Source: a bacterium
GTDB taxonomy: Bacteria; Omnitrophota; Gorgyraeia; Zapsychrales; Zapsychraceae
Direction: 5' to 3'
Length of the DNA: 64,000 nucleotides
Assembly: GCA_030429765.1 (NCBI GenBank)
Contig: JAUIER010000003.1
Coordinates: 16,402 to 80,401, forward strand
Numbering within the stretch: the first letter of the stretch is position 1; the number at the start of each line of letters is the position of its first letter. This document shows, in pieces, positions 1 to 42,589 of the stretch. A program made the translations under genes and the position numbers. The notes beneath the pieces are model-generated. The model saw only the letters and a program-made list of their open reading frames with translations. It was not told where the DNA came from and made no database searches.

Positions 1-3000
1 GATCCTCGGGAAGTATCTGGTCACGTCGAGCTTTGACTCCCAGCGCGAGCGTAAAGAAATATTCCGTAATCTGGATCCGGAAGAATATTATCCGATTTAC
101 GGGGACGGATCGGAGATTAATTACGACGCGACGAATACGCAGGGCAATCTGTATGTCTTGATCGAGTGGGATAAATCATCGGTGATCTGGGGGAATTACA
201 GTATTGGATTTGATGAAACCGAATTTGGTCGCTTCAGCCGTTCACTGTACGGGGGTAAGGTTGATTTTGAGTCTTTGAGTACCAACAAGTACGGCGACGC
301 GCGGACCAAGATCATCGCGTTTAAGGCCAAGGCGCAGCAGCGCAGCGCGCACAATGAGTTTTTGGCAACAGGCGGTTCACTCTACTTCCTCAAGCACAAA
401 GATATCGTCGAGGGATCGGATAAAGTGACGATCGAGATCCGTGACAAGATCACCGGATTGGTGACGACCTCACGCGACATGGTTGAGGGGGCGGACTATG
501 AGTTGGATTACAGTTCCGGGCGGATGGTGTTCTGGAAGCCTGTTCCAACGCTGGTCCAGTCGTATTCAATTATTGAAGATGACTTATTGGCCGGAAATCT
601 GGTTTATGTGATCGCCGACTATGAGTATGAAGTCAAGGACAAGGTTGATGAAGGAGCTATCGGGGTTCGGGCCCGTCAGGCAGTGGGAGAGAATGTGCTC
701 GTCGGAACGACCTATGTGCGTGAAGGTTTGGAGCAGGAGGATTATCAACTCCGCGGTACGGACGTGACGGTCAAGCTCGGTGAAGAGGCCTCGATCACAG
801 CAGAATACGCGCAGACATCAGCCGAAGTCCAGCCGACATTTGTCTCGACCGACGGCGGTTTGTCATTCACTGAGCTGGCGACGAGCGAGGGATCCCGCGG
901 ACGTGCCTACGGACTTAAGGGGAACGCGCGGCTCTTCAACCGTCTGGGTGTGGACGCGTACTACAAATGGATCGACAATGAATTCTCAACGTCCGCGACG
1001 ACCGCGCAGCAGGGCAAGGAGCTTATCGGGCTTGAATTGACGTATGATCTCGGCGAGCAGACACGGTTCACCCTCAAACAGGATATTCAGCGCTTACTCG
1101 ACGACGGGAACCTCCAAACGCAGCTGCAGGTGGGATCAAACCGCACATCCACGACCATCGCGCAGATCGTGCATGAGGCCCGTCAGTTCCGAATCACGGC
1201 AGAAGCCCGCCGCGATGTCGATGAAGCGGCGGATACTGAGGTTAATATTATTGCGATCCGCGGAGATTATAAGTTCAGCGATCGGTTGATCTTCTCGGCC
1301 ACGCAGCAGGCGACTATTGGCGAAGATGATTGGCGTACGACGCTGGGTGTCTCGGCCAAACCGAGTGACAAGTTGACGCTGACCTTGCAGCAGATTTTCA
1401 GTGAGGACGGATCAGCCACGACGATTGGCTTGATCGCGGATATGAACGAGCGTTTCGCGCTAACGGCCGGTTACACACTGGAAGAGGCCGGCGGTTCCAG
1501 CGCGACTATCGGCGCGATCACCAGACTTAATGAATCGATCGAGCTGGAAACCAAATTTGGTATTTCCTCAACGGAAGGGTTCAGCCGTGCGTTCGCTCTG
1601 GGGGCCAGCGGCAAGCGCAGGTTAGGCGAGGATAGTGTGCTCGACACATCATTTGGTGCCGACGATTCCGGCGTGACAACCGCTACGGCCTCCGTCGGTA
1701 CGACTTCCAAGATAACCGATACCACTGAGATTAGCAGCAGCGTCGAAGTCTCCGGAGACGGATCACGCCGACAAACAGCTGTTACGCTGGGCGGGACGAC
1801 TCAATACGGCGAAGATACAATGTTGCAGAGTCAAATCGAGTTGTCCGAGGCGTCATCGGGTTATCGCGCATCCACATTCTCCATCGGGGGACGTAAACAG
1901 GTCGATGAACAAACGCTGGTCGAGAATAAAATTTCCTTCACGGACTCCAACACGGGTGTGGATCAGACATCCGTTACGTTCGGGACAACCAAGAAGATTA
2001 CGGATGACATCGAGTTGACAACATCGAGAATTTTCGGGACGACAGGCGATAGTCAAACCACGGAGAATCAGTATGGACTATCGCTGGTCCGGGACGGTAA
2101 GAAATTGCAGGGGACGTTAAGCCGTCGTTATCAAAGCGGCGAGACTGAGATTTCGCGAACAAATATCTTCGGGTTGACCGGGGAGCTCGACGACCGATGG
2201 GCGTTGACCGGAAAGTATGAGCGATCGGAAATCGAGAACCTTGACGGATCACAGACACGTCGTGACGTGATTTCACTGGCGGGGGGATACGTTAAAAAGG
2301 ATCCGGAAACGGGGCTTGAAATGTTCAAGAGCTCTACGAAACTTGAGGTGCGTTTTGACGAGGGTAATGAGGATCGCCGTCAGTACTTGATCAGCAACGC
2401 GTCGGAAGGTCAGCTGACACCGGAGTTTTCACTCTTCAGCAAGATCGAGTTATCGGAAACGGTCGATACCAGTCTGGATACACAGATTGAACAGTACAAA
2501 GAGTTTGTGATCGGTGGGGCCTATCGACCGATCATGTTTGATAACCTCAATATTTTGGGTAAATACACGTATCTGGAAGGACGTTCGCCGGCCAGTCAGG
2601 AAGATTCAGCGGATATCGTCGAGGAGAAGGCTCAGGTCATGTCAGCCGAGGCCATTTACGATATCACGGACAAATGGCAGATCACCGAAAAATTCGCCTA
2701 CCGTATTAGCGATGAGAAGGTCGAAGGTTTTGATTTCACCAAAACCCATACGTGGTTGATGATCCATCGATTGACGTACAAGGTCAACAAGGATTGGTCG
2801 GTTAGCGGGGAGTACCGTATGCTTACTCAGCGGGAGGCCGAAGACAGCAAACGCGGCGCGCTCTTTGAAGTGTCCCGACGCGTGGGTGAATATGCGCAGC
2901 TGGGCGTCGGGTATGACTTCACGGACTTTACCGATGATCTCACCGACCTGGATTACACGACCTATGGTCCGTTCGTTCGGGTTACCGGTAAGTTCTACGA

Positions 3001-3388
3001 CCGTTCGCCGGAGGAGATTGAGCGTTCGCGGCAGAAGTGGCTGAATGAAAAGATCGACCGCTGGGCCTGGATCATGGTCCGGGAAGAGCTGGACAAGGAT
3101 TCCAGTCCGATACTACGGGAGTTGAATGATTATTTTGTTATGGCGCAGCTGGCATACGAAAAAGGCGACTACGAAGAGTCGGAGCAAATCTACAAGGATA
3201 TCATCATGGCCGGCCGGATGATGCATGGGGAAGCGGCCGAGTTCATCCGCAAGCATGTCGATAAAGAGAATCGTCTGCGGGAAATGAAGGAGCTCGCTGA
3301 TCAGTATTACAAGAACGGTCAGTACGAAAAAGCGAAGAAAATATTAGAGAAAATTCTGGAAGAGGCCGAAAAGCCTGTGTTAAAATAG
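1..3388 (+). CDS. Outer-membrane beta-barrel-like protein, 5'-partial, with a ~130-aa C-terminal helical TPR-like extension
   Basis: The reading frame is open from base 2 and the listed ATG at 158 is internal. The protein shows long runs of alternating hydrophobic/polar T/S/G-rich segments typical of beta-hairpins. The barrel-like C-terminus is ...YTTYGPFVRVTGKF. It is followed by a helical tail with the TPR-like units LAYEKGDYEESEQIYKDII and YYKNGQYEKAKKILEKILEEA, which resemble the repeats of the downstream gene. Confidence 0.5.
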   Translation, partial: ILGKYLVTSSFDSQRERKEIFRNLDPEEYYPIYGDGSEINYDATNTQGNLYVLIEWDKSSVIWGNYSIGFDETEFGRFSRSLYGGKVDFESLSTNKYGDARTKIIAFKAKAQQRSAHNEFLATGGSLYFLKHKDIVEGSDKVTIEIRDKITGLVTTSRDMVEGADYELDYSSGRMVFWKPVPTLVQSYSIIEDDLLAGNLVYVIADYEYEVKDKVDEGAIGVRARQAVGENVLVGTTYVREGLEQEDYQLRGTDVTVKLGEEASITAEYAQTSAEVQPTFVSTDGGLSFTELATSEGSRGRAYGLKGNARLFNRLGVDAYYKWIDNEFSTSATTAQQGKELIGLELTYDLGEQTRFTLKQDIQRLLDDGNLQTQLQVGSNRTSTTIAQIVHEARQFRITAEARRDVDEAADTEVNIIAIRGDYKFSDRLIFSATQQATIGEDDWRTTLGVSAKPSDKLTLTLQQIFSEDGSATTIGLIADMNERFALTAGYTLEEAGGSSATIGAITRLNESIELETKFGISSTEGFSRAFALGASGKRRLGEDSVLDTSFGADDSGVTTATASVGTTSKITDTTEISSSVEVSGDGSRRQTAVTLGGTTQYGEDTMLQSQIELSEASSGYRASTFSIGGRKQVDEQTLVENKISFTDSNTGVDQTSVTFGTTKKITDDIELTTSRIFGTTGDSQTTENQYGLSLVRDGKKLQGTLSRRYQSGETEISRTNIFGLTGELDDRWALTGKYERSEIENLDGSQTRRDVISLAGGYVKKDPETGLEMFKSSTKLEVRFDEGNEDRRQYLISNASEGQLTPEFSLFSKIELSETVDTSLDTQIEQYKEFVIGGAYRPIMFDNLNILGKYTYLEGRSPASQEDSADIVEEKAQVMSAEAIYDITDKWQITEKFAYRISDEKVEGFDFTKTHTWLMIHRLTYKVNKDWSVSGEYRMLTQREAEDSKRGALFEVSRRVGEYAQLGVGYDFTDFTDDLTDLDYTTYGPFVRVTGKFYDRSPEEIERSRQKWLNEKIDRWAWIMVREELDKDSSPILRELNDYFVMAQLAYEKGDYEESEQIYKDIIMAGRMMHGEAAEFIRKHVDKENRLREMKELADQYYKNGQYEKAKKILEKILEEAEKPVLK

Positions 3389-3421
3389 GCCTCTTGATAC
3401 TATTATTAATAAGTATAATAG

Positions 3422-6400
3422 GTGTTGTGTAAACGGCGCATGTCCGCAAATCCAAAATACATTTCTGCCTTCATTAAGTGCCTGGCCGCGGGGATTCTCT
3501 ATGCGGGAATCTCGACGGGGGGTGCAGTTCTCGCCCAGGAATTACCGGATGATCCTACATTCAAAGAGCGTAAAGCCGAAGAAGGTTACACACTTGATCT
3601 GAAAACGCTGATCAATAAATCCAAGAAACGCATCGAACAAGTTGAAGATAAGCTCAAAGAGCAGGCCAAAGAACGCCGCAATGAACGGCGTGAGGCCAAG
3701 GCGCGTGAGTACTATGAGAAAGCCCAACGTCTGTACGATGAGGGCAAATTTGATGAAGCCGTCGAACTTTGGGAGAAGGCTATCCGTATCACAGAGCATG
3801 ATGAGATGGAGGGGTATGTCCACAAGAGTGTGAGCCGTCAGCGGAAGAAGGACAAGGCGCTGAAGAAAGAAGAACAGCGCCGGCTGAAGCGACTGGAGGT
3901 CGAACGCGGGTATTCAGCCAAAGAGGTCGACAAGAAATATCGGGAGGCGGTCGAACTGTACAAAGATAAAGATTTTCTCGCCTCGAAGGTGGTTTTTGAA
4001 GAGGTCAACAAAATGTTCCCGGACCATCGCGCCACCCGCAGTTATATCGCGCTCATTGATCGACACATTGAAAAGGAACAGCGCGGAATGATCGAATCAA
4101 AGCTCAACAGTCCGGAGATGTCGTCGGCCAAGGCCAAGGCCCGCTGGAAAGAAGAGCTCAAAGAACGCGAACGCCAGCGTGAAAATGAACGCCGCGAACA
4201 GGCCGATGCGCTGTATGAAGAAGGCATCCGGCTGTACAAGAGCAAACAATACGAAAAGGCCAAGGAAAAATTCAAGGAAGTCGAATGGGTTCTGCCGGAC
4301 TACAAGCGGACGCTGCGCTATCTGTCCAAGATTGACAAAGATATCGAAAAGCACGGCGTGCGCTTTACCGAAGAGGATAAACTTCGCTATTTCAAGAATC
4401 AGGTCCGGGAAGGCAAATTGTCACCAGCCGAACAGGCCCAGGCTGAACGTAATCGAGTGGTCCAAGCGCGTGGATTTACCGATGAACGCCGGCGCAAAGA
4501 AGAGGCCGAGTTTGTCTATGATGCCGCGGAAACACTGTACAGGAAAAAATACTACAAACAGGCCCTCGAGAAATTTTATGAAGTCCGTTCGATTTATCCT
4601 GGATACAAGAAGACGGACCGTTTTATCAAGAAGCTGCACAAACGGTTGCCCGACGAGGCGGACAAACATGAAGTGGTCCAGCAGTCCTCTAGTCCGGATT
4701 ACGATGAAATGTACAAAGCTCCGCAGGGGACCAATGAGACCGCCCGCAAGGCCATCGCCAATCATCAGAACGGATTGGTCGCTCAGGCCGAAGAAAAATA
4801 CCAGCAGGCGGTTATGTTTTATAACAAGAAAAACTTTACCGAGGCGCAGCGAAAATTTATAGCGGTTGAGGCAATCATTCCAGGGTACAAGGCCACCCGC
4901 GAGCACCTCGCCCGGATCGACGGCGATATTGCGCGTCACCGCGGCCATACGTCAACCAAAACTGAAAAATCTGTAGCGTCAGCCAAACGCTCCCTATCAC
5001 CTCGTCAGGAGGAGACGGTCAAAGATAAATATCGTCAGGCCCGACGGCTCTACAAAGACAGGAATTATCAGGCCGCCAAAGACTTATTCGTCGAGATCAA
5101 TAAACTAAGTCCGGGGTACCGTTCGACTATGAAATATATTTCCCGATCGAACCGTAAACTCGAGCAGGAAAAAGCGGAGCGTGACAAACTCAAAGGCAAT
5201 GTTGGGGAAATGACCGTTGCGGCGGCGCCGGCAAGCACCATAACAGCCGGGAATTTGGGAACTCAGCGTAATTTGGGACTGGACGAGTACGAACGATTCA
5301 AACAGGCGGCCTATGCCGGTGAGGAATATCAACCAATGATGGGTGCAACCGAATTAGAACAGGTCGAGGCGCAAGCCGTGGAAGTGATTGAGGCTGTAAC
5401 GGCTGATCCCAAGCTCCTGGAAGAATATGATCCGTCCGATGCCAAGTTGTCCCGCGATGACAAGCGTCAGCTTGAGAAGCAGCAGGAGATGGTCCAGAAG
5501 GAAGTATCGCAGCAACAGAAAGATACCAAGCATCAAATGAAGCATATTATCGGCGATACGTATGACGAAGCGCGTGAGCTCTATCAGAAGGAAGAGTGGG
5601 CCGAAGCCAAGATCCGGTTTGAAACGGTGGAACGGTTGAGTCCCGGCTACCGACGGGCAAAATCGTATATCAAGCGAATCAATCGGAAGATCATGGAGCG
5701 GCAGGCCGTACCGGAGATCAAGGTGACAACCGCCGATGGAAAGCCTATTCCTGTGGTGGCGGATGTGACATTGGAAGATATTCAAAAGGCCCGTGAGGCC
5801 GAGCAAGTGGTCAGTCAGGAAGAGCTTCATCGTTCCGCACATCGCGTGGCCAAGCAAATGCAGGAGGAACAGAAACGGTTCGCTGCTTTGGCGGATCAAG
5901 CCATTCATCATTCCATGGAGGATACGGAGGAGGCCCGTAAGCAACGCGAGGCGGCCGCTGAAAAGACCAAGCGCGAACTCAAGGAGTCAATGCGGCTGCT
6001 GGAGTATGAGGCCGAGCAGCGGGAAAAAGCGGCCATGGAGGCACAACAGGCGGTCAATAAATCGTCGCGTCAAAGCCGTCGAGATTTAGATAAACTTCGT
6101 GATGACATGAAAGACGAAATGAAACAGGCGAATCGCGAGACCCTTAGGCGAATGGAAGATATGGTGGCCACCACATATGACGAAGCCAAGGATTTATTTA
6201 AGGAAAAAAGATACACGGCGGCGAAGCTTAAGTTTGAAACCGTCCAGCGACTGCATCCTGGTTACCGTCGGGTGGAATCGTATCTCAAGCGGGTTGATAA
6301 CAAGATACGTACCAATCAGGATTACACTGCCGATATGCCCAAAGATGTGTCGCAGGATCTGCTGCGATTGAAGAAACAAAAAATACGGCTCAAGGCCGAA

Positions 6401-7681
6401 GATGATGCCTATGCGGTCGCACGTGTTCGAAATAATGATTTGGAGAATGTATTGATGACGCGTAAGGAGTACACCAAGCGCGTGAGCGAATTGCATGCCA
6501 TTGATGAGGAACAAAAACGGTTGGCCGGTGAGCGTCGGATGAAACGGTTGGAACAGGAGCGCCTGTTAAAGTTGGAAGAAAAGCTGGCGTTTGAGCGGGC
6601 GCTAAAGGAAAAAGAAGCCAAGATTCGACGCAAGCAAGAAATGGACGAGCAGGAGAAAGAGGAGATTCGCCGGGCTAAACGGCGTGAGCATGACGAGCGG
6701 TTACGCGAGGCGCGTGAGCATCAGGAACGCATGGAACGCAAGTATCGCGAGGACCTCAAGCGGATTCGTAAATACGCGCTGAAACGATACCGCGACAACG
6801 ATATGATCGAGGCTCAGGCATTGACCGGACGTTATGAAGACTTGTTGGCCAAGGCCAATTTCTCCGAGCGCGAGCGGATCAAGATGCGGCAGCAATTCAG
6901 CCGCGAAAAGAAAAAGATCCTCAAGGAATACGACCGGGATCGCTACGAGGCCGAACGGATTTTGTATGAAGGTACTAGATATCAGGCCGCCGAGGCACCG
7001 ACAGCATCCGACGCAAATAAGATTCAGCTGACCCGTTCCAAGGAGTTAGAAGAGTTAGAGGCCAAGATTCGCGAAGAAGAGCGCAAACTGCAGCGGGCCC
7101 GTGAAGAAGAGGAAAAGCGTCGCCAGGAAATGGCAGAAGTACGGGCGCAGTTGACGCCTGATCTCGCGCCTCCAACAATCTCAGAGTCTAAAACCGCTTC
7201 TTTGAGCAAGGCATTCCCGGCGGATGTAGACCGCTATGTGGAAATTCGCGAGGAACGGAATCGAAAACGCGGGATGAAAATCGAAGAGATCCAGGAGCAA
7301 AAACGTAAAGAGATTGAATCCGTCGTCAAATCCCGCCAGGCGGAATTGCGTAAAAAACGCGAAGAGGTCCAGGAGGAGTTTGATAAGAATATCAAGAAGC
7401 TGTACAAAAAGGCGGTAAGGCTTTACAAAAAGAAAAATCTGCAGGAAGCTGAGATCATTTTTGAAGAGATCCAGATAATGAAGCCGGAGTATAAAAAGAC
7501 GGAAAAGTACCTGACGAAGATCCGTAAAAAGATCAAAAAATCGGATCAAACGGTGAAGGCTCAACCGGTTGAAACCGGATTCCGTGAAACCACGTCAATT
7601 CCACTGGAGCCCATCGGCGGCTCCTCCCGTCAAGATGCTGTGACAAGCGCCTTGGACGCCTTTGAACGCCAGATGTGGTAG
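3422..7681 (+). CDS. Secreted, highly charged (K/E/R-rich) repeat protein of 1419 aa with at least 9 TPR-like 'LY..K.Y..A...F..V....PGY.....YI..I...I' units
   Basis: The start is GTG at 3422, or alternatively ATG at 3440. The N-terminal signal peptide is MSANPKYISAFIKCLAAGILYAGISTGGAVLAQE. Repeats include LYEEGIRLYKSKQYEKAKEKFKEVEWVLPDYKRTLRYL, LYKDRNYQAAKDLFVEINKLSPGYRSTMKYI, LYQKEEWAEAKIRFETVERLSPGYRRAKSYI and LFKEKRYTAAKLKFETVQRLHPGYRRVESYL. Charged coiled-coil-like linkers lie between them. Only 33 nt separate this gene from the upstream one. Confidence 0.55.
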   Translation: MLCKRRMSANPKYISAFIKCLAAGILYAGISTGGAVLAQELPDDPTFKERKAEEGYTLDLKTLINKSKKRIEQVEDKLKEQAKERRNERREAKAREYYEKAQRLYDEGKFDEAVELWEKAIRITEHDEMEGYVHKSVSRQRKKDKALKKEEQRRLKRLEVERGYSAKEVDKKYREAVELYKDKDFLASKVVFEEVNKMFPDHRATRSYIALIDRHIEKEQRGMIESKLNSPEMSSAKAKARWKEELKERERQRENERREQADALYEEGIRLYKSKQYEKAKEKFKEVEWVLPDYKRTLRYLSKIDKDIEKHGVRFTEEDKLRYFKNQVREGKLSPAEQAQAERNRVVQARGFTDERRRKEEAEFVYDAAETLYRKKYYKQALEKFYEVRSIYPGYKKTDRFIKKLHKRLPDEADKHEVVQQSSSPDYDEMYKAPQGTNETARKAIANHQNGLVAQAEEKYQQAVMFYNKKNFTEAQRKFIAVEAIIPGYKATREHLARIDGDIARHRGHTSTKTEKSVASAKRSLSPRQEETVKDKYRQARRLYKDRNYQAAKDLFVEINKLSPGYRSTMKYISRSNRKLEQEKAERDKLKGNVGEMTVAAAPASTITAGNLGTQRNLGLDEYERFKQAAYAGEEYQPMMGATELEQVEAQAVEVIEAVTADPKLLEEYDPSDAKLSRDDKRQLEKQQEMVQKEVSQQQKDTKHQMKHIIGDTYDEARELYQKEEWAEAKIRFETVERLSPGYRRAKSYIKRINRKIMERQAVPEIKVTTADGKPIPVVADVTLEDIQKAREAEQVVSQEELHRSAHRVAKQMQEEQKRFAALADQAIHHSMEDTEEARKQREAAAEKTKRELKESMRLLEYEAEQREKAAMEAQQAVNKSSRQSRRDLDKLRDDMKDEMKQANRETLRRMEDMVATTYDEAKDLFKEKRYTAAKLKFETVQRLHPGYRRVESYLKRVDNKIRTNQDYTADMPKDVSQDLLRLKKQKIRLKAEDDAYAVARVRNNDLENVLMTRKEYTKRVSELHAIDEEQKRLAGERRMKRLEQERLLKLEEKLAFERALKEKEAKIRRKQEMDEQEKEEIRRAKRREHDERLREAREHQERMERKYREDLKRIRKYALKRYRDNDMIEAQALTGRYEDLLAKANFSERERIKMRQQFSREKKKILKEYDRDRYEAERILYEGTRYQAAEAPTASDANKIQLTRSKELEELEAKIREEERKLQRAREEEEKRRQEMAEVRAQLTPDLAPPTISESKTASLSKAFPADVDRYVEIREERNRKRGMKIEEIQEQKRKEIESVVKSRQAELRKKREEVQEEFDKNIKKLYKKAVRLYKKKNLQEAEIIFEEIQIMKPEYKKTEKYLTKIRKKIKKSDQTVKAQPVETGFRETTSIPLEPIGGSSRQDAVTSALDAFERQMW
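3700..7545 (+). repeat. Dispersed intragenic repeats (~45 codons each, at least 9 copies) encoding TPR-like helix pairs ending in a P-G-Y motif
   Basis: The protein-level consensus A..LY.....Y..A...F..V....PGY.....Y...I...I recurs along the 3422..7681 product. It follows the TPR consensus positions (L/W4, Y/L8, A11, A20, F24, P32). Confidence 0.6.
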
Positions 7682-7687
7682 GCGTTT

Positions 7688-9997
7688 TTGCTCATCCCGC
7701 AATTTCTTACCATGCACCGACAATTCAGTGTTGACATTCCGGCGCTTTTGCATCAGTATTTGTCTTGGATCATTTTGACGCCGGCCATTCTATTACTTCC
7801 ATTTCACACCCTTGTGTACGCCGGTACAGATATTCTCAAGGATAACACCATGACCGCTGATTCCAAACTCAACAGACTCGCCCAGGAAAAAAGTCCGTAC
7901 CTACTGCAGCACGCGACCAATCCGGTGGATTGGTATCCCTGGTCGAATGAGGCCTTTGACAAGGCGCGGCGCGAGGACAAGCCGATCTTTTTGTCTATCG
8001 GATACTCCACCTGCCATTGGTGTCATGTGATGGAGCATGAGTCTTTCGAGGATGCAAAGATTGCTGAGTACTTGAACGCACATTTTGTTGCCATCAAGGT
8101 AGACCGTGAGGAGCGGCCGGATGTTGATACTATCTACATGAGCGCGGTTCAGACCATGACCGGACAGGGCGGTTGGCCGTTGTCGGTATTCTTAACGCCG
8201 GATAAAAAACCATTTTTCGGCGGGACCTATTTCCCGCCATATCAACGCTGGGGTTCACCCGGATTTCTCGATGTGCTGCGCTCCATTCAGAATTCATGGA
8301 CGAATAACCGTGAACAATTGGTGGCGTCGAGCGAATCGTTGAGCGACATGCTCGCCGAACGTCAATCCGGTCTCAATCCCGGCGATCCGTTAGGGGCACC
8401 GGTTCTGGAAAAAGCCTATAATCTTTTCGCCCGCAACTATGATCGGACATTTGCCGGATTTGGGGATGCTCCCAAATTTCCCACCAGTCACAATTTATCG
8501 TTTCTGCTGCGCTATTGGAAGCGCACGGCGGATGCTCAAGCTCTCGAGATGGTCGAACAAACGTTGAGACGAATGGCCGAGGGAGGAATGTATGATCAAC
8601 TCGGCGGCGGATTTCATCGGTATGCCACCGACCGGGAGTGGCAGGTGCCGCATTTTGAAAAGATGCTTTACGATCAAGCCATCCTGGCCCGGACATACTT
8701 GGAGGCCTATCAAATCACTCGAAATAGTTTTTACGCCGACATCGCCCGCGATATATTTGACTACTGTCTACGTGATTTGCGGGATAGCCTCGGCGGATTT
8801 CATTCGGCCGAGGATGCGGATAGTATCGATCCCTATGAGTTTGAACATACAAGTGTAGAGCTGGAAGGGGCCGAGAAGAAAGAAGGCGCGTTTTATTTGT
8901 GGACGTATACGCATATGCAGCAGATTCTCGGTGAGGCAGATGCCAAGATTTTTGCCGATGTCTACGGCGTTAAGGCAAACGGGAATGCCAAGTCAGACCC
9001 GCATGGAGAGTTCACCGGGAAAAATATTTTGCATATCGATCAGAATCTTGAGCAGGTCGCGGAATCATCAGGAAAGAGCCTGGAGGGAGTTCAGGAGATT
9101 TTGGAGCGCGCTCGCGCCAAGCTGCTCGAGGTGCGACGAACCCGTTTGCGCCCGCATCTGGATGACAAGGTATTGACCGACTGGAATGGATTGATGATAT
9201 CGGCCTTGGCGTATGGGGGCTGCGTGTTGGGAGAGAGCAGGTATCTTGAAGCGGCCGAAGAAGCTGCCAATTTCATCTTACATAACATGTTCGACCGGGG
9301 CCGTCTGCTGCATCGCTATCGGGACGGCGAATCGGGCATTACCGGAACGTTAGAAGACTACGCATTTTTAACAAATGCCTTATTAGATCTCTATGAGGCA
9401 ACCTTCGATGTCCTATATATAGAGAAGGCAGTCGAACTTACCGGTCAGATGCTAGAGTATTTTTGGGATGATGAACGGGGCGGATTTTATCTGACGGCCT
9501 CAGATGCCGAGGCGTTGATCCTGCGTCCCAAGGAGATTTATGATGGCGCGATTCCATCGGGAAATTCGGTGGCGGCCCTGGTGTTGGCGCGCTTGTATCA
9601 CATGACATTCGACGCCGATTATTTGAGTCGGTTGGAGAAAATGAGCCAGACATTTGCCGATACCGTGCGTCAGTACCCAAGCGCGTACGCGCAATTTTTG
9701 ATCGCTATTGATATGGCGGTCGGACCGGCCCAGGAGATTGTGATGGCCGGCCCGGTGGACGATGCCGGAATTCATCATCTGACGAATCAAATTTACGCGC
9801 GTTTTCTGCCGAACCGTGTGCTGCTACATCGGGGGAGCGACGCGGATGACAATTCCATCATATTTAAGATTGCCCCTTTTGTGGCCAATCAACCGCCAAT
9901 CGAGAATCAGCCGACGGTCTATATCTGTGAAAATCATCAATGCAAACAACCGACCAATGATCCAGCCGTTTTTATTCAACGGCTGGAGGATTTATAA
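7688..9997 (+). CDS. Thioredoxin-domain protein of the YyaL / DUF255 (COG1331) family with a C-terminal six-hairpin (N-acylglucosamine 2-epimerase-like) domain
   Basis: Motifs: [54 protein letters not shown] (thioredoxin-like CxxC) and WTNNREQLV. The listed TTG start at 7688 adds a hydrophobic 54-aa extension. The canonical family start fits ATG 7850 ([22 protein letters not shown]). Confidence 0.8.
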
Positions 9998-10011
9998 AGC
10001 GAGGACTTATC

Positions 10012-11823
10012 ATGAAATTTATCAAGGTACTACTCATCATTATTCTGGTGCTCATCGTTCTGATGGGCGTTGGTGCTTTTATTTTTATCAAGACATTTGA
10101 CGCGAATCAGTATAAAGACAAGATCACCCAGGAAATGACCAAGGCCCTTAACCGGCCGGTCAATATGGACCGAATCGACCTGAAGATGTCGGCCGCCAGC
10201 GGGGTTTCGCTTGAGGTTGTTAATCTGGATATCAAGGATATGCTGGAGGTTGAGTCAACCTACCTAGCTGTTGACTTGATGCAGTACGCCAAGAATCGGA
10301 AGATTGTTATTCCGAAGGCGATCGTCAAGTCACCCAAGATCACCTTTGTTCAGGCCGGAACCGGAGCCTCCGGGGCGGCGGGTAGCGGGTCGACGTCTGC
10401 ATCTGGGGCTTCAACGAGCGGTGTCCAGGAAATCCCTGAAGTTTCAATTGAGACCATCCGGATCGAGAACGGGACATTGCACTATCGGGACATCACACAG
10501 GCCAAGCCTGTTGACATCAAGATTCAGCAGCTGGATGTGGAGATCAAGGATGTCGCATTGGATAAGCCGTTTCCGTATAAGGTCGCGCTTGCCGTTTTTT
10601 CTGATCAGCAGCAAACGGTGAAGCTGGACGGATTGGCTACATATTTGTCTAAGAGCGGAGAGATACGTGTTCAAGATCTGAAGGTGGATGTGCTGCTTGG
10701 AAAGATGTCATTGGCGCAAATTCTTCAGGCCGCGCCCGACCTGGCCGGATCAGGGCTTCAATCGATTGACGGCGGGACATTGATTCTTAATCTCAAAGAG
10801 CTGCTGCTAAAATCGGACGGACAATTAGGTGATGTCTCGGCCGACGGTCAGCTTAAGGATCTCAAGCTTCGGGTTGAACAGCTTCCGGGGCCGGTTGCGA
10901 TGGATGCCGATTTTCAGATGACAGGAACGGATGTGCGCATCGGACAGGCTGTGGTCAAACTAGCCGACGGCGAAGTCAAGCTGTCGGGGAATTTAACCGA
11001 TGTCATGCAGTCGATGGGATATGATCTGAAGCTGACGATCAATCAAGTGGACGTTACCAAGTTGATGGATCAATCAGAATTGCCGGTCAAGATTGCCGGA
11101 TCGGCTCAGGGGCAATTTGATGTCACCGGGCAGGGGATTGATGAAGCGGCGATCCGCTCAAATCTCTCCGGGGCTGGGCAATTTCGGATCGCGGACGGCC
11201 GGATCAAGGACAAGAATTTGCTGGGGATCGTGGTCAATCAGCTGGCCTGGTTTCCGGATTTTTCGAATCGCTTTAAATCGAACCTTTCGCCCAAGTATCA
11301 GGAGCGGATCAAGGCGGACGATACGGTGCTCAATGACGTGTCCGCGGATGTTCAAATCGCGGCCGGGCAGATCCAACTCAAGAATGTTCAGCTTGATGCG
11401 GATGGCTTCGTCTACAGCGCGTCCGGCCGGATGGACTTTGATCAAAATCTGAATCTGAAGTCTTCATTCAGTTTTGATCAGGAGCTTAGTGATACAATGC
11501 TCAAAATGCAGGGTGAACTATCGGCCTTATTGGACAATTCCCGGCGCGTGAATTTTCCGTTCAAAGATTATCAAGGCAAAGCGGATAAATACGTGCCGAG
11601 ACCGGACACCAAAGAGCTGTTTAAGCAGGGCGTGGCGAACCGCGGTAAGGCGGAACTCAAGAAAGTTTTGTTTAAGGCATTAGACATGGAAGAACAATCG
11701 GCGCCCAAGGTCGAAGGCACTTTGAACACGGGCGTTGAAAGTAATTTATCAGAACCCAAAGAAGTTAGTACAGAAGAAGTTCTGATCGATAATGTCCTTG
11801 ACGCTATTCCGTTATTTAAGTAG
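10012..11823 (+). CDS. AsmA-family outer-membrane biogenesis protein
   Basis: N-terminal TM helix MKFIKVLLIIILVLIVLMGVGAFIFI followed by KTFDANQYKDKITQEMTKALNRPVNMDRIDLKM, which is typical of the AsmA N-terminus. The long beta-rich remainder also fits. Confidence 0.7.
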   Translation: MKFIKVLLIIILVLIVLMGVGAFIFIKTFDANQYKDKITQEMTKALNRPVNMDRIDLKMSAASGVSLEVVNLDIKDMLEVESTYLAVDLMQYAKNRKIVIPKAIVKSPKITFVQAGTGASGAAGSGSTSASGASTSGVQEIPEVSIETIRIENGTLHYRDITQAKPVDIKIQQLDVEIKDVALDKPFPYKVALAVFSDQQQTVKLDGLATYLSKSGEIRVQDLKVDVLLGKMSLAQILQAAPDLAGSGLQSIDGGTLILNLKELLLKSDGQLGDVSADGQLKDLKLRVEQLPGPVAMDADFQMTGTDVRIGQAVVKLADGEVKLSGNLTDVMQSMGYDLKLTINQVDVTKLMDQSELPVKIAGSAQGQFDVTGQGIDEAAIRSNLSGAGQFRIADGRIKDKNLLGIVVNQLAWFPDFSNRFKSNLSPKYQERIKADDTVLNDVSADVQIAAGQIQLKNVQLDADGFVYSASGRMDFDQNLNLKSSFSFDQELSDTMLKMQGELSALLDNSRRVNFPFKDYQGKADKYVPRPDTKELFKQGVANRGKAELKKVLFKALDMEEQSAPKVEGTLNTGVESNLSEPKEVSTEEVLIDNVLDAIPLFK

Positions 11824-11877
11824 GTTTTAAGGCAGTTTGGACTTTTTCGCATCACGTTGGAATTATTTGAAATTCTC

Positions 11878-11905
11878 TTGTTATAATTTGAAATTCAACT
11901 ATAAT
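11878..11905 (+). promoter_or_regulatory. Sigma70-like promoter candidate (TTGTTA - 16 nt - TATAAT) in the AT-rich gap upstream of the PilZ gene
   Basis: ttgtta at 11878..11883, a 16-nt spacer, tataat at 11900..11905. The predicted TSS is ~30 nt upstream of ATG 11942. Confidence 0.35.
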
Positions 11906-11941
11906 AAAAATCAGTTAATCAAAAACGGTTGAAAAAAACAT

Positions 11942-13699
11942 ATGGTCAATAAATCCGATATCATTTATAACGAAGCACGAAACAATTTACGAGTTAAAGA
12001 ATCACGAAGCGTTTTGTGGCGAGTGAACGATGGAGACATCAAAGGTAAAGGTCAAATCCGTAACATTTCAACCACCGGCATGCTGCTCGAGACCAACTCG
12101 AATTTTGTTCCTACCGAAGGCTGCCGATTTTCATTTGATTCCGCACTAGGACACGATAATTTTATCCCGCAAAATGGAAAGCTGGTTTGGCACAAACGCA
12201 AGCCGTTCTCCAAGAATAAATATCTTTGCGGGATTCGCTTTGTTGAACCCGGCGAGTATGTGCTGACCAAGCTTCGACAGCGCGTTCAAAAGGGTATCAA
12301 GCATATTGCCAACGCCCGCCGCATGCGCAAAGTTGTCAATTTTATGATGATCATCGGTATGATCGCCATGACCGCGTATGTACTCTGGGAAGCCAGTCAT
12401 GTCTACCAAAATATGAATACCACCAACCGCCGCATGCTGGATGCCTCGCAGCAACAGGCCCTGTTGACACAGAGCTTTTCCAGCCGATTGGATGTCAGTG
12501 AAATGCAGCTGGCCAGTGTCACGGAAGAGTTGGATGCCACACGTACCTTATATAGGGAAAGCCAGGGGCTGCTTGGGGAGGTTCGCGTAGAATTGGAGCT
12601 GACCAAGGCCGTTTTGGCGGATACCGAATCATTGCTTGAACAAACCAAGACGGATCTTGTCGGAGTTCAAGGTGAGCTGTCAACCACTCAATCTGATCTT
12701 GCCGCCCGAACCAAAGAATTGGAAGGCGTTAAAGAAGAATTACTTGGTGCACAAACCAATTTGGCCGGCGTTAGTGCCGGACGTGATGAGCTGGCGGCCA
12801 AAATTAAGGCGTTGGAAGAATCGAACACCGGGGCCAAGGCTGATTTTGAAAACACCATTCAGCTGCTTGAGCTCAAGAATCTTCAGCTGAACGAAGAGAT
12901 GGCCAAGCTTCAGCAGAAAATCACCGACATCACCGCCGCGAATGTGGCCGCTGCCACGACGAGCGGTACCGTTGAGTCCCGCAATATCGCGTTGACACAA
13001 GAGATAGAAACTCTCAAGTCGCAGTTAGCGGCTGTATCTGAAAGTCAAACCGTCGGTGCTGATCAGAAAATCATCCAGCTGAACGAACAAATCGACAGTC
13101 TCAAGGCGCAATTGGTGACCGCGAACAATCAGAATGCCAACCTCAAAGAAGTCCGCATAGACAATCAAAAGTTGAACGACGATATCATCCGGCTCAAGAA
13201 AATGCTTTTGGCGGTCTCGGAAAGTAAAGTGGCGGGCGCCGAGGCCAAGATGGCCGAGTTGAATACAGAGATCGACGGGCTCAAGGGTGAATTGGCAGCA
13301 TTGTCAGCCGATAATGTTCTCACCAAAGAGCAAGGACAAAATTTAATCAAGACCTATCGTCAGGAAATGGCCAAGGTCAAAGATAAGCTCAAACATTTCC
13401 GCGCCGAGGCCAAGAAAGTCCGTGAGGACGCCTTGATCGAGCGTGACCGAATTCAAATGTCGCTGGGCAACCAGGGATACTTCATGAAAAACGGTAAGGC
13501 CGTCCAAGTGGACTACGCCAAGTATGAGAATGTCGGCTTAAATGAAGTCCGCCAAAATCAGGAGATCGAAGCGGTGGCCATCAATGTTCCGGAGGTGGGA
13601 GCCACATCCGCGACACCGGCCGTCGAGCCGACACCGGCGAGTGTAGACAAGCCAATCGACAATCGTCAGTTTGAAATTGACGTCACGTTTGTCGAATAA
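11942..13699 (+). CDS. PilZ-domain (c-di-GMP binding) membrane-anchored coiled-coil protein
   Basis: The N-terminus carries the PilZ motifs RNNLR (RxxxR) and NISTTG (D/NxSxxG). A TM segment MMIIGMIAMTAYVLW follows. Next is a ~350-aa heptad-rich coiled coil with an internal duplication (LAAVSESQTVGADQKIIQLNEQIDSLKAQL / LLAVSESKVAGAEAKMAELNTEIDGLKGEL). Confidence 0.55.
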   Translation: MVNKSDIIYNEARNNLRVKESRSVLWRVNDGDIKGKGQIRNISTTGMLLETNSNFVPTEGCRFSFDSALGHDNFIPQNGKLVWHKRKPFSKNKYLCGIRFVEPGEYVLTKLRQRVQKGIKHIANARRMRKVVNFMMIIGMIAMTAYVLWEASHVYQNMNTTNRRMLDASQQQALLTQSFSSRLDVSEMQLASVTEELDATRTLYRESQGLLGEVRVELELTKAVLADTESLLEQTKTDLVGVQGELSTTQSDLAARTKELEGVKEELLGAQTNLAGVSAGRDELAAKIKALEESNTGAKADFENTIQLLELKNLQLNEEMAKLQQKITDITAANVAAATTSGTVESRNIALTQEIETLKSQLAAVSESQTVGADQKIIQLNEQIDSLKAQLVTANNQNANLKEVRIDNQKLNDDIIRLKKMLLAVSESKVAGAEAKMAELNTEIDGLKGELAALSADNVLTKEQGQNLIKTYRQEMAKVKDKLKHFRAEAKKVREDALIERDRIQMSLGNQGYFMKNGKAVQVDYAKYENVGLNEVRQNQEIEAVAINVPEVGATSATPAVEPTPASVDKPIDNRQFEIDVTFVE

Positions 13700-13731
13700 A
13701 TCCGCCTGATTATCCTTCCATCCAACGTATC

Positions 13732-14508
13732 GTGATCAAACGTTCCAAGAAAATTACACGAACGGATCAGATTTTTTCTTCTCAATCAGTCAAGTTACCC
13801 TATGTACTTGTGCGCTCAAATGCCCGGCGGACATCAACGATTATGGTGGACGAACAGGCCAAGGTCAGCGTCTATGTTCCTTATAAGGCGTCGCAAGTAT
13901 ATGTAGATGCTTTTATCCGTGAGAAGATCAACTGGATTGAGAAATGCGTGGCCAATGCCCGCCAGAATCAACGGATCATCGAGCAGAAAAAGTTTGATCA
14001 CGGCGGGAAATTCTGGTTTCTCGGTAAAAAGTATCCGATTCATGTCAAAGCTGATAATCTGAAACGCGCGGTGATCCATTTTGATGGACTAGGCTGGACG
14101 GTTCGGGTCCCGCCCGATATCGAGGATGAACGCCGTGAGGAGATGATTCGGGACAAGCTGGTCAAGTGGTACCGTCAGCAGGCCGAAGAGATCCTTGGAG
14201 GCCGGATCTTTCATTATTCACGAGTGATCGGTGTTGAGCCTAAAAAGATTGCCGTCCGCAGCCAGAAACGGATGTGGGGATGCTGCGACTATACGCGGCA
14301 GGTCATCCACCTCAATTGGCAGATTGTCCTGACGCCCATCCGGGTGATTGACTATGTGGTGGTCCACGAGTTATGCCATTTGATTCATCCCAATCACAGC
14401 AAGCGGTTTTGGAATAAGGTGGGGTCGGTGATGCCTGAATATCAGGAATATCGGGATTGGTTGCGACGTAATCAGACCGAACTGATGCTGCCGATGGCCA
14501 GGACATGA
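13732..14508 (+). CDS. YgjP-like metal-dependent hydrolase (DUF45, zinc HExxH WLM/SprT-like)
   Basis: VVVHELCHLIHPNHSKRFWNKV motif. The start may instead be ATG at 13846. Confidence 0.7.
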   Translation: MIKRSKKITRTDQIFSSQSVKLPYVLVRSNARRTSTIMVDEQAKVSVYVPYKASQVYVDAFIREKINWIEKCVANARQNQRIIEQKKFDHGGKFWFLGKKYPIHVKADNLKRAVIHFDGLGWTVRVPPDIEDERREEMIRDKLVKWYRQQAEEILGGRIFHYSRVIGVEPKKIAVRSQKRMWGCCDYTRQVIHLNWQIVLTPIRVIDYVVVHELCHLIHPNHSKRFWNKVGSVMPEYQEYRDWLRRNQTELMLPMART

Positions 14509-14726
14509 AGATTTACGTTCGGGTGATCCCCCAGGCCAAACGTGCCCAGATTCGCCAGGAAGACACGGGGTTGAAGGTGTATCTGACAGCCCCCGCGGTC
14601 GACGGCAAGGCGAATAAGGCGCTTCTGGCTGTATTGGCCGATTTCTACGGGGTGCGAAAAAGCCGGATTCAGATCATAAAGGGATTGAAATCACGGGACA
14701 AAACAATTATGATAGAAGGCATTTGA
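14505..14726 (+). CDS. DUF167 / YggU-family small protein
   Basis: MKIYVRVIPQAKRAQI...DGKANKALLAVLADFYGVRKSRIQIIKGLKSRDKTIMIEG. A 4-nt ATGA overlap with the upstream gene. Confidence 0.75.
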   Translation: MKIYVRVIPQAKRAQIRQEDTGLKVYLTAPAVDGKANKALLAVLADFYGVRKSRIQIIKGLKSRDKTIMIEGI

Positions 14727-14780
14727 AGCGGACCAGAGGCCTCCCAGGCCCGAATCGGTCCCAAAAAGCCTGGAGACAAC

Positions 14781-15230
14781 ATGTTACAAGAGCAAATCAA
14801 CAAAGATTATATCACCGCCATGAAGGCGCGGGATTCCGTGAAATCATCAACCTTGAACTTTTTACGTGCGCAGTTGAAGAACGTGAGCATCGAGCAGCAG
14901 ACCGAGAAACTCTCGGACGATGCGGTGATCGCAGTATTAAAAAAGCAGATCAAACAGCGTCAGGATTCTATTGAGCAATTCAAACAGGCCGGACGGACCG
15001 AGCTTGTCGACAAAGAATCGGCCGAATTGGCGGTGTTGCAGGAGTATTTACCCGAGCAGATGTCCGCCGAACAGATTGAGGTTATTGTCAAGGATGCCGT
15101 GGCTGAACTACAGGCGAGTTCGATGAAAGATATGGGTCGCGTGATGAAAGCGGTCGGTGAGAAGACCGGGGGCAATGCCGACAACAAGGTCGTCAGCGAA
15201 GTGGTTAAGAAGATCTTAATGAACCAGTAG
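14781..15230 (+). CDS. GatB/YqeY domain protein
   Basis: KDYITAMKARDSVKSSTLNFLRAQLKN ... LQEYLPEQMSAEQIEVIVKDAV ... DMGRVMKAVGEKTGGNADNKVVSEVVKKIL. Confidence 0.8.
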   Translation: MLQEQINKDYITAMKARDSVKSSTLNFLRAQLKNVSIEQQTEKLSDDAVIAVLKKQIKQRQDSIEQFKQAGRTELVDKESAELAVLQEYLPEQMSAEQIEVIVKDAVAELQASSMKDMGRVMKAVGEKTGGNADNKVVSEVVKKILMNQ

Positions 15231-15239
15231 GCGTAGCAG

Positions 15240-16049
15240 ATGACAAAGACAAAGGATAGTAAGCGGCCGCATGTTGTTATGCGGCTTGTTATCGTATTAG
15301 GACTGGTGATCGGACTGGGGATGAGCTTTTGGCTGATCTGGATTGATCAGCATCGAATTGTGCCGATCGTGATGTATCATCATATAGATGAGCTGGATCA
15401 TCATGCGGTGGCCACGATACCCGCCGACCGGTTTGAAAAACATTTACAGTATCTCAAAGATCACCGATTTGATGTGCTTTCGATGGATGAACTGGTACAG
15501 GCCAAACGATCCGGACAGCGGATATCCCGAAAGACGGTCGCGTTAACTTTTGACGACGGATACGTTGACAATTATGAACAGGCGTATCCGTTGCTCAAGC
15601 GTTATGGATTTCCTGCCACGATGTTTATCAGTTCGGATCTCGTCGGAAAGCCCGGCTATATCAGCTGGGATCAGGCCCGTGAAATGCAGAATAACGGTAT
15701 CACCTTCGGCAGCCATACGCGCCGGCATATTTATTTACCGGACGCGGACCGTGAAGAGCAGTTAGACGAAATTGTGAACAGCCGCAAGATTTTGGAACGC
15801 GAGCTCGGGATGCCGGTCAAACATTTTTCATATCCCGTCGGCGGCTTTAATCACGAAATCAAGCAGATGGTTAAAGTGGCAGGATACCAAAGCGCGGTGT
15901 CGACCAATCGGGGATATGATCGATATAACGAGGACGTGTTTGAATTTAACCGCGTCACGATCGATGAGACCGACAATTTCGGTGCGATCCGCTGGGCTAA
16001 ATTTTCAGGGTATTACAATCTATTCCGCACACCCAAGAATCCAGAATAA
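15240..16049 (+). CDS. Polysaccharide deacetylase (NodB-homology / CE4) with an N-terminal TM anchor
   Basis: TFDDGYVDNYEQAYPLLKRYGFPATMFI ... GSHTRRHIYL. TM segment VVMRLVIVLGLVIGLGMSFWLIWI. Confidence 0.8.
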   Translation: MTKTKDSKRPHVVMRLVIVLGLVIGLGMSFWLIWIDQHRIVPIVMYHHIDELDHHAVATIPADRFEKHLQYLKDHRFDVLSMDELVQAKRSGQRISRKTVALTFDDGYVDNYEQAYPLLKRYGFPATMFISSDLVGKPGYISWDQAREMQNNGITFGSHTRRHIYLPDADREEQLDEIVNSRKILERELGMPVKHFSYPVGGFNHEIKQMVKVAGYQSAVSTNRGYDRYNEDVFEFNRVTIDETDNFGAIRWAKFSGYYNLFRTPKNPE

Positions 16050-16070
16050 ATTATAGAGAAGGATATTTTC

Positions 16071-19349: not shown

Positions 19350-19502
19350 TACCGTGTAGGTACAACGAGTTTTATGAGTTGAGCGTAAGTTGTTGTAATA
19401 TAAATAATTACAATTCATTCGGCGCTCAGCTGATCCTTCCAACGACAGCTGTATTGTTGTATACTTATAAGAGGAATATCTTCTAATATTTATACTAATA
19501 AT

Positions 19503-25736: not shown

Positions 25737-25869
25737 CCGATAAATGATTTAAATCACTCGCATTCAATCATTTGGAGACTAAAGGATTGAATTTTCTTTA
25801 CACTTGTAATAAAATTTTCACATAAATCGAAACCGCAAACTTGAAGTAGCACGATAGATAGGGGGCTTC

Positions 25870-26865: not shown

Positions 26866-27036
26866 TCTGAAACGAGTGATCAGTGATCGGTAACGCGAGT
26901 ATTGCTGGATACCAAGTTCAGGGGCGGTAGGACAAAGGGCTGATATATCAGCGTGTCCTGCCAAGATGAGTCAACCATCCGGGTGTCGCGTGTCACATCA
27001 CCGGTCTCTCTCCCAAAAAACTGTAAGTCATTCATC

Positions 27037-29533: not shown

Positions 29534-29534
29534 A

Positions 29535-31702: not shown

Positions 31703-31706
31703 GCCG

Positions 31707-34285: not shown

Positions 34286-34312
34286 TCCAGGATAACCAGT
34301 ACTCACAAGGAT

Positions 34313-42534: not shown

Positions 42535-42589
42535 CTCTTGTTCCTCCGGCTCAGACCTGAGATAGTCCGAGTCGGAGGAAAACATTTTT

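Follow-up and report, generated by a model that had tools for sequence, protein, structure and literature searches.

A putatively exported rod protein of isolated TPR-like units, encoded beside a predicted giant outer-membrane barrel in Omnitrophota

We consider a stretch of 64,000 nucleotides (nt) from a bacterium of the Omnitrophota (contig JAUIER010000003.1 of assembly GCA_030429765.1, positions 16,402 to 80,401 of the forward strand; hereafter the window), and in it a gene for a protein of 1413 residues (aa) that carries isolated units resembling the tetratricopeptide repeat (TPR). We call this the rod protein. Its gene lies directly behind that of a giant protein with a barrel-like sheet, whose C-terminal tail contains a TPR-like unit of its own. 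Using an isolated TPR as a joint between long charged helices is a new way to build a TPR protein, and barrel and rod together make up an uncharacterised module across the Omnitrophota. The parts of the two genes outside the repeat units are the following.

2..2995 (+): upstream giant protein, its C-terminal 998 aa; beta-rich domains and a barrel-like sheet, ending in ..GPFVRVTGKF
2996..3388 (+): helical tail of the giant protein, about 130 aa and the stop codon; one TPR-like unit and a terminal helix pair
3440..7681 (+): rod protein gene, 1413 aa and the stop codon; product 100% identical to P0001 (1413 aa)
3440..3535 (+): Sec-type signal peptide MSANPKYISAFIKCLAAGILYAGISTGGAVLA, read from the sequence
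3542..3700 (+): conserved N-terminal helical segment (rod aa 41-93) leading into unit 0; mean identity 0.57-0.65 to 19 relatives
7628..7666 (+): conserved C-terminal motif RQDAVTSALDAFE (rod aa 1403-1415), 4 aa from the end, behind a P/S/T-rich stretch

The open reading frame (ORF) of the rod protein covers 3422..7681 (+) and opens at a GTG (3422); the ATG at 3440 is the likely start, because the identical database protein has 1413 aa. The N-terminus (MSANPKY...GGAVLA, then QELPDD) is likely cut before QELPDD as we read it, and the reading finds no lipobox and no lipobox cysteine at the cut. Comparable N-termini, ending in ..ASA/QE or ..FSQ, are present in the homologs, and the rod protein reads as Sec-exported. 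Charged residues make up 42% of it (K 12%, E 14%, R 11%, D 5.5%).

The first-pass annotation had flagged positions 3700-7545 as a series of at least nine degenerate TPR-like units. Within two bases, this span runs from unit 0 to unit 8 (aa 94-1374) of the one ORF, and at least nine units are indeed found there, eight of one 52-aa type and one canonical TPR_2. To measure the internal repeat, we build a hidden Markov model (HMM) from seven of the eight units and score the eighth with it, using 500 shuffles of the whole rod protein as the null. Each left-out unit reaches 40-64 bits, while the best score among the shuffles is 9.1 bits. The units are as follows.

3701..3859 (+): unit 0 (aa 94-146), a canonical TPR_2 pair, then the ITEH.EM.GY motif and a third helix
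3782..3817 (+): ITEH.EM.GY motif (aa 121-132), family-specific, standing where the PxYK turn would be
3923..4078 (+): unit 1 (aa 168-219), leave-one-out 59.4 bits against at most 5.5 in shuffles; three helices in AlphaFold
4199..4354 (+): unit 2 (aa 260-311), leave-one-out 59.6 bits; helix A ends a 43-aa helix begun in the linker
4502..4657 (+): unit 3 (aa 361-412), leave-one-out 40.4 bits; helix A ends a 40-aa helix
4784..4939 (+): unit 4 (aa 455-506), leave-one-out 51.9 bits; three helices in AlphaFold
5015..5170 (+): unit 5 (aa 532-583), leave-one-out 63.9 bits; three helices in AlphaFold
5546..5701 (+): unit 6 (aa 709-760), leave-one-out 64.3 bits
6161..6316 (+): unit 7 (aa 914-965), leave-one-out 61.5 bits; weak match to the BamD N-terminus at aa 909-947
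6755..6901 (+): possible TPR-like unit at about aa 1112-1160, degenerate and lacking the PxY turn, found by eye
7388..7543 (+): unit 8, the last (aa 1323-1374), leave-one-out 53.8 bits; mean identity 0.44

The eight 52-aa units share 25-48% pairwise identity. The motif proposed for them earlier, PGY.....YI..I...I, fits all eight, with P[GDE][YH] at aa 200, 292, 393, 487, 564, 741, 946 and 1355. Unit 0 is the sole unit that Pfam recognises on its own: the TPR_2 score of the whole rod protein (42.8 bits; cut-off 27) rests on aa 94-126. The unit HMM, too, matches unit 0, over helices A and B (i-E 3e-4). In its ITEH.EM.GY motif T124, E128 and M129 are invariant and H126 nearly so among 54 sequences, and the motif may be a specific contact site or a metal site. 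The degenerate tenth unit is moderately conserved in the family and yet not significant with the unit HMM; the position of unit 8 is conserved across the family. We find no tandem repeats at the DNA level in the rod gene, so that the units are old and not the product of a recent expansion.

We compare a profile made of 44 diverse units with solved structures. It matches CTPR3, a designed consensus TPR, over profile positions 1-44, solvating helix included, and also the TPR domain of YbgF (2xev, E 7e-5) and the last TPR of FKBP4 together with the helix that follows it; the E-values for the three lie between 4e-6 and 9e-5. An AlphaFold model of the rod protein (a monomer, aa 36-640, 54 aligned sequences) has a mean predicted local distance difference test score (pLDDT) of 82.9 and a predicted template modelling score (pTM) of 0.34. 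Each modelled unit has three helices, A (13-16 aa), B (14 aa) and C (11-31 aa), which, with the profile match to the CTPR solvating helix, bears out the description of a unit as one TPR helix pair and a capping third helix. Helix A forms the C-terminal end of helices of 31-47 aa that start in the linker, and helix C often extends into the linker. The N-terminal segment (aa 41-93) is modelled as a short helix and the start of a 47-aa helix, with pLDDT of only 44-74 over the first 30 modelled residues.

These units are not packed as a TPR solenoid, as had been claimed from the sequence: the pTM is 0.34 despite a pLDDT of 83, and the Foldseek likeness to TPR proteins is local only. Against the PDB, Foldseek returns OGT, P58IPK, SPINDLY (SPY) and CTPR arrays with probability about 1, at template modelling (TM) scores of 0.08-0.15 and root-mean-square deviations (rmsd) of 25-45 Å. 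A likeness that is local only (TM at most 0.15) indicates that the rod units do not form one solenoid. The units start about 75, 92, 101, 94, 77, 177, 205 and 409 aa apart, never 34. In short, the rod protein has the TPR consensus helix pair and lacks the tandem adjacent repeats, usually 3-16 of them, in a right-handed superhelix. A lone TPR unit offers no multi-repeat groove for classical TPR ligand binding.

One might suppose that the chain nevertheless turns back on itself, so that its units pile up in a single contiguous TPR superhelix from which the linkers project as hairpins. The short breaks that AlphaFold places in each of the first five linkers would permit hairpins, and several linkers have pLDDT above 90, which can indicate packing. 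The low pTM, and the TM and rmsd values to every TPR solenoid, speak against such a fold; so do the spacing steps of 3 and 4 residues and the consensus linkers free of proline and glycine (P/G) described below, which are ill-suited to a two-armed hairpin. We consider this alternative very improbable.

We turn our attention to the linkers of the window protein. They were expected to measure 60-120 residues; their actual lengths are 21, 40, 49, 42, 25, 125, 153 and 357 aa. The description of them as K/E/R-rich holds for several, which are highly charged, and fails for three that are only 24-36% charged and rich in P/G/S/T. The call of a predicted coiled coil, which would ask for hydrophobic a and d positions over at least 4 heptads, is unsupported for want of a heptad signal: in our scan of heptad a/d contrast (a crude home-made test), 0% of the rod residues stand at the 0.7 level, which is reached by GCN4 and by 54% of tropomyosin residues. 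The single alpha-helix (SAH) of ER/K type would be a better description, and four stretches, 161 aa in total, have its composition (windows at least 60% charged and at most 20% hydrophobic, with no P/G and at least 5 opposite-charge i/i+4 pairs). From their composition, the charged linkers look like ER/K single helices, or else are partly disordered in this protein.

aa 413-454, 507-531, 584-708: weakly charged, P/G/S/T-rich linkers, 24-36% charged
4127..4156 (+): part of the unit 1-2 linker with invariant Trp and Lys, SAKAKARWKEEL (rod aa 236-245), marked by conservation
5189..5350 (+): P/G/S/T-rich stretch (aa 590-643), probably flexible by its composition; starts the poorly conserved middle section
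6575..6772 (+): longest ER/K-type charged helix candidate (aa 1052-1117), from composition windows
5924-5989, 7025-7147 and 7304-7399 (+): shorter ER/K candidates (aa 835-856, 1202-1242 and 1295-1326)

The pLDDT falls below 50 at about aa 423-434, 509-524 and 596-618. The linker between units 1 and 2 is conserved as strongly as the units, and for this reason we take at least the N-terminal linkers to be more than spacers. Along the whole protein, a MAFFT alignment gives the highest conservation at aa 41-320, the first two linkers included, and the lowest at aa 600-920, with an occupancy of 0.14-0.23 across aa 601-680; the last unit and the C-terminal motif are moderately conserved. Of 199 family sequences, many of them truncated, 93 carry the motif (family consensus sR.d.is.ALDlfE) within 30 aa of their end.

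The family extends well beyond the window. A first search returns 89 rod relatives of about 900 to 2300 aa, and all the named ones come from Candidatus Omnitrophota; overall, the relatives have about 900 to 2400 aa and about 5 to 26 units. A scan with one genome per species gives 59 rod loci with Omnitrophota titles, apart from some metagenome-assembled genomes (MAGs) labelled 'uncultured Planctomycetales', Elusimicrobia or Lysobacterales; as their loci have the gene order of the others, we regard these labels as mis-assigned. An exhaustive HMMER search finds 124 clusters (50% identity) at E <=1e-30 and 564 at E <=1e-3. A search with the N-terminal domain only returned no relatives, which is a limit of the word index, as full-length relatives exist.

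With a family-wide unit HMM (952 units in the first set), we measure the start-to-start spacing of neighbouring units and scan it for a period between 2.5 and 12 residues. Over about 200 relatives, all of them traced to the Omnitrophota, the spacing is quantised. In the first set there are large classes at 63 and 99 aa and others at 77, 88, 92 and 128. A hold-out set, made of 110 further cluster representatives outside this first analysis, gives the same period, and the observed R is never reached in a null that jitters the spacings by +/-3 residues. The best periods are these.

All spacings up to 140 aa: n=649, best period 3.62, R 0.56
Non-redundant linkers: n=359, best period 3.63, R 0.41, phase 0.48 turn
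Non-redundant P/G-free linkers: n=78, best period 3.63, R 0.67-0.70, phase 0.47 turn
Non-redundant linkers with P or G: n=281, best period 3.62, R 0.34, phase 0.49 turn
Hold-out non-redundant linkers: n=461, best period 3.61, R 0.40, phase 0.50 turn
Hold-out P/G-free linkers: n=109, best period 3.61, R 0.64, phase 0.50 turn

With the hold-out set included, the classes are 52, 59, 63, 70, 81, 85, 88, 92, 99, 110, 121 and 128 aa. They differ by 3, 4, 7 or 11 residues, and nearly all of them equal a whole number of alpha-helical turns plus about half a turn. One relative, P0020, has seven 63-aa repeats in succession at about aa 560-1010. Linkers related by descent are not independent, and the argument is carried by the many distinct length classes that agree modulo 3.6 and by the replication. 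A quantisation at 3.6 residues points to continuous helical linkers of fixed geometry, and steps of 3, 4, 7 and 11 are better fitted by one continuous helix than by a hairpin. The consensus linkers of the 63- and 99-aa classes have no P/G, more than 60% charged columns and almost no hydrophobic ones. We infer that in most family members helix C would run through the linker and into the next helix A as an unbroken single helix, and that selection probably keeps neighbouring TPR knots about 180 degrees apart around it. At the level of sequence, the helical phase is thus independent support for the idea of a rod. The window protein follows this rule only in part: its 92- and 77-aa spacings belong to the phase classes, and its 94- and 101-aa spacings are off phase with P or G in their linkers, which makes it a more hinged member of the family.

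The same data bear on whether the linkers pair between chains, giving a dimeric or trimeric coiled-coil fibre with the TPR knots as its nodes. The AlphaFold model covers the monomer only; the unit's nearest relative among named bacterial proteins, CpoB/YbgF, forms trimers via a helical region; and there is weak heptad contrast (0.5-0.6) at aa 57-91, 796-829, 1091-1121, 1204-1245 and 1300-1329. We think a fibre of this kind quite unlikely, given that no residue attains the a/d contrast of GCN4 or typical tropomyosin, that the consensus linkers offer almost no hydrophobic columns to pack, and that the spacing follows 3.6 and not 3.5 residues, with steps of 3 and 4. The first-pass annotation had likened the arrangement to a molecular ruler or a multivalent docking rod. 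The phase-locked helices of discrete length do recall a molecular ruler measuring a fixed length, such as the width of the envelope or the length of a fibre. Since species differ more than two-fold in total length and in the number of units, the middle third shows little conservation (and some disorder in the window protein), and neither the Pfam/NCBIfam matches nor the neighbouring genes give a type 3 secretion or phage-tail context, we give the idea of a ruler hardly any credence.

We next examine the giant protein encoded upstream. The window holds the C-terminal 1128 aa (2..3388) of a gene that runs off its left end, about the C-terminal third; a homolog at another locus (L001) has 2961 aa, with a signal peptide and with DUF11/CLIPPER and CarboxypepD_reg domains. 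The AlphaFold model of the window portion (64 sequences; pLDDT 75.8, pTM 0.64) contains about 44-47 beta strands between aa 199 and 996, and Foldseek matches it with probability 1.0 to LptD, TonB-dependent receptors, Deinococcus SlpA, SprA, FimD and MtrB. The TM scores of these matches do not exceed 0.31, as is to be expected if the predicted barrel is much larger than any of the matched structures. According to the model, the giant protein is predicted to be an outer-membrane barrel of about 45 strands. The predicted strand count exceeds those of LptD (26), SlpA (30) and SprA (36). Relatives of the barrel from other phyla (Scalindua, Nitrospira, Luteimonas and others) have ..GPFVRVTGKF as their last residues, as is typical for the end of a barrel; tail-less relatives are also seen in Thermodesulfovibrionia. 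Some relatives have an OmpA domain further upstream in the chain, and one has a weak OMP_b-brl match. Pfam/NCBIfam searches find no Omp85/POTRA or type 9 signature domains in the barrel.

The tail behind the barrel is modelled as four helices (aa 1003-1123, pLDDT about 90). It is the only part of the upstream protein matched in a sequence search of the PDB, namely to TPR designs and kinesin light chain; a weak match to the N-terminus of the secretin Amuc_1098 is far below the cut-off and was not used for membership. A query of 138 aa (the last barrel residues and the tail) is matched over its full length in 58 of 58 loci at 41-83% identity, and the stretch is exactly 138 aa long in 53 of 59 sequences. 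Aligned to the rod unit profile with hhalign, the complete unit of the tail has a probability of 40% (E 3e-4) and the helix A+B pair at its end one of 81.5% (E 1e-5). Only six residues follow this pair, leaving no third helix. The tail should be periplasmic, given that an even strand number places the C-terminus of an outer-membrane barrel on the periplasmic side.

In each of the 58 loci whose upstream DNA is usable (61 examined), the rod gene directly follows the barrel-with-tail gene, with a gap of 33 nt in the window. Of the four barrel relatives in which the full tail is missing, three stop at the barrel and one about 30 residues beyond, and none has a rod gene downstream. The MAG HK-STAS-OMNI-4 contains two barrel-rod loci, L005 (JACKFL010000007) and L009 (JACKFL010000006), whose rods are 56-61% identical to the window rod; this may be a true duplication of the pair, or two strains were binned together.

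The strict pairing of the rod gene with a barrel that has the tail, the match of the tail to the rod unit, and the conserved ends and variable middle of the rod all point to the rod protein as a partner of the barrel. We propose that it would be an elongated, almost all-helical exported protein whose building block is a single TPR, folded as a three-helix knot (A, B and C). Long charged helices would join the knots, each running from helix C into helix A of the next, and in the family a linker of whole turns plus a half turn would set neighbouring knots about 180 degrees apart; in the window protein, P/G-rich hinges would interrupt several linkers and give a segmented rod. The rod might then serve as a periplasmic strut or scaffold partner of the giant barrel encoded 33 nt upstream, one of its conserved ends docking on the TPR-like tail, whose last pair is without a capping helix, and its variable middle setting the reach or the spacing. 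As far as sequences and models can tell, the rod has this architecture, its linkers are locked in phase, its gene is paired with that of the barrel, and the tail resembles a unit; from these findings we would expect a place in the periplasm, a physical contact between rod and tail and a function as a strut. We advance the whole of this reading tentatively, as a plausible proposal. A bolder form of it, which we hold to be doubtful, has the rod and the barrel of about 45 strands as an undescribed, phylum-wide envelope apparatus of the Omnitrophota, in which single TPR knots, joined by single alpha-helices fixed at n+1/2 turns, would amount to a new structural principle and give a stiff strut of two-fold screw geometry, and a rod helix would complete the unfinished terminal TPR of the barrel in trans.

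Several points weigh against the proposed strut. Many genes in this region of the genome keep their order, which makes adjacency alone weaker evidence than it would be in a shuffled genome. AlphaFold breaks each of the first five linkers of the window rod. As candidates for the third helix of the tail, neither the rod N-terminus (not significant with the unit HMM; hhalign probability 4.9%) nor the C-terminal ALDxFE motif (hhalign probability 2%) finds support. Judged from residue counts, the longer relatives would, if fully extended, far exceed the usual width of the periplasm, and a radial tether from the inner to the outer membrane is unlikely for them. The rod protein may also oligomerise.

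The large barrel suggests a different destination for the rod: it could be a cell-surface fibre or a substrate exported through the wide barrel, with the C-terminal motif as a sorting or anchoring signal, in contact with host or prey cells. No solved relative is as large as the barrel is predicted to be, and the type 9 translocon SprA is among its matches; a barrel gene followed by a cargo gene recalls two-partner systems; length and unit number vary widely between species, as they do in surface fibrils; and a conserved motif stands at the extreme C-terminus behind a disordered stretch. Omnitrophota are thought to attach to other cells (PMC10066038). On the other side, the strict co-occurrence is with the tail of the barrel, which is expected in the periplasm, so that contact there would be periplasmic. 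The barrel is without the Omp85/POTRA or type 9 signature domains, and the existence of tail-less barrels without a rod implies that it has a function independent of the rod. Such export to the surface seems unlikely to us.

The rod could instead act on the barrel as a periplasmic chaperone or assembly factor, its TPR knots holding the unfolded chain of about 3000 aa before insertion in the manner of BamD- or SycD-type proteins. In favour of this role, the rod gene is tightly paired with that of the barrel and apparently shares an operon with an AsmA-like gene, and there are weak partial matches to the BamD and SycD/LcrH models, with BamD among the local Foldseek matches as well. The scores of those models are far below the cut-offs, though (35.6 bits against 81.4 for BamD; 15.7 against 104.8 for SycD/LcrH), a single TPR has no groove for a client, and the phase-locked rigid linkers with their conserved sequences point to a structural role and not to transient holding. 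We see only a slight chance that the rod is a chaperone. As to family membership, the match to BamD (TIGR03302) covers model positions 27-65 only and the rod has no lipobox cysteine, so that we do not count it as a BamD; the SycD match was likewise not used for membership.

It is instructive to set the rod protein beside known systems. With TPR arrays (CTPR, OGT, P58IPK) its units share the helix pair, the usual small and large residues and the proline that ends helix B. The repeats of such arrays are 34 aa apart, however, and those of the rod family 52-128 aa or more and never adjacent; the arrays form a superhelix with a multi-repeat groove, and the rod has neither (TM at most 0.15). The likeness to CpoB/YbgF lies in a periplasmic protein with a helical region and TPRs, and in the match of the unit profile to YbgF (2xev). 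CpoB/YbgF has about 260 aa, with an N-terminal trimerising helix and one compact domain of three TPRs, and is encoded in the tol-pal cluster, whereas the rod has nine dispersed units in 1413 aa, and no tol-pal genes are present among the neighbouring genes examined. The JGI label 'TolA-binding protein' on several relatives is an annotation carry-over, far below the cut-offs.

The charged linkers resemble the ER/K SAH spacers of myosin VI/X and caldesmon in their richness in E, K and R and in their opposite-charge i/i+4 pairs. Both are without a hydrophobic seam and without P/G, and in both the length varies in whole turns. The named examples are eukaryotic, cytoplasmic and single spacers, while the rod is a bacterial protein that is exported, in which SAH-like segments and folded knots appear from the sequence to follow each other at regular intervals. 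Rods of spectrin repeats (spectrin, alpha-actinin and the bacterial EzrA) probably share the logic by which the last helix of one unit, there a three-helix unit, continues into the next. A spectrin repeat has about 106 aa in three equal helices, in contrast to the 52-aa TPR knot with its 14-aa middle helix; no spectrin families occur among the Pfam/NCBIfam matches of the rod, and the resemblance is in the connection logic only. OmpM and Deinococcus SlpA (8agd) combine a very large barrel with a long helical element on its periplasmic side, as the predicted barrel and the rod would. In SlpA the stalk and an SLH anchor are part of the same chain, N-terminal, and the stalk is a trimeric coiled coil; here the rod is a separate protein and the barrel has a short C-terminal tail. 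No SLH or peptidoglycan-binding domain is found in the rod by Pfam/NCBIfam matches. A full-text literature search, including papers on Omnitrophota and on bacterial single alpha-helices, returns no description of the family or its architecture.

The genes that follow complete the picture of the locus, and those with coordinates are listed here.

7688..11823 (+): DUF255/DsbH-type thioredoxin-like gene with a GlcNAc-2-epimerase-like region and a hydrophobic N-terminus, then an AsmA-like gene
11942..13699 (+): 585-aa protein, an N-terminal PilZ domain and a long helical region with weak SMC/Rad50-like matches
16071..19349 (+): 1092-aa protein, no Pfam match
19503..25736 (+): 2077-aa protein, signal-peptide-like N-terminus
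42462..42831 (+): three tRNA genes in a row (Rfam RF00005, 54-68 bits)

The DUF255 gene starts 6 nt after the rod gene, and the short gaps suggest that the barrel, rod, DUF255 and AsmA-like genes form one operon; their order is conserved in many Omnitrophota loci. Further downstream the conserved order continues with PilZ, YgjP, polysaccharide-deacetylase and GH149-like genes, and the PilZ-domain gene is conserved in many loci. The best conserved gene of the neighbourhood is that of the 1092-aa protein, with an identity of 52-75% between Omnitrophota loci. Over its first 370 aa this protein matches the GH149 beta-1,3-glucan phosphorylase model (E 7.5e-39), though the match stays far below the cut-off of that family. 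The 2077-aa protein has weak protein-kinase-like matches near aa 1760-1860 (UbiB, PknB and Bud32 models). All sizeable ORFs in 1..35453 are on the + strand and the GC skew is positive over the whole window, which is consistent with one replichore and a strong strand bias.

TPRs are textbook stacking repeats, and the rod protein uses the same motif as an isolated joint. That the phase is kept across hundreds of diverged linkers, a result drawn from sequence alone, says that the linkers are rigid and that their geometry matters. As natural rigid spacers of defined length and orientation, they make the rod a possible template for protein engineering. The Omnitrophota are ultra-small, probably host-dependent bacteria, and the rod protein is found throughout the phylum; the rod and its barrel give a testable handle on how these uncultured cells build their envelope or make contact with other cells.

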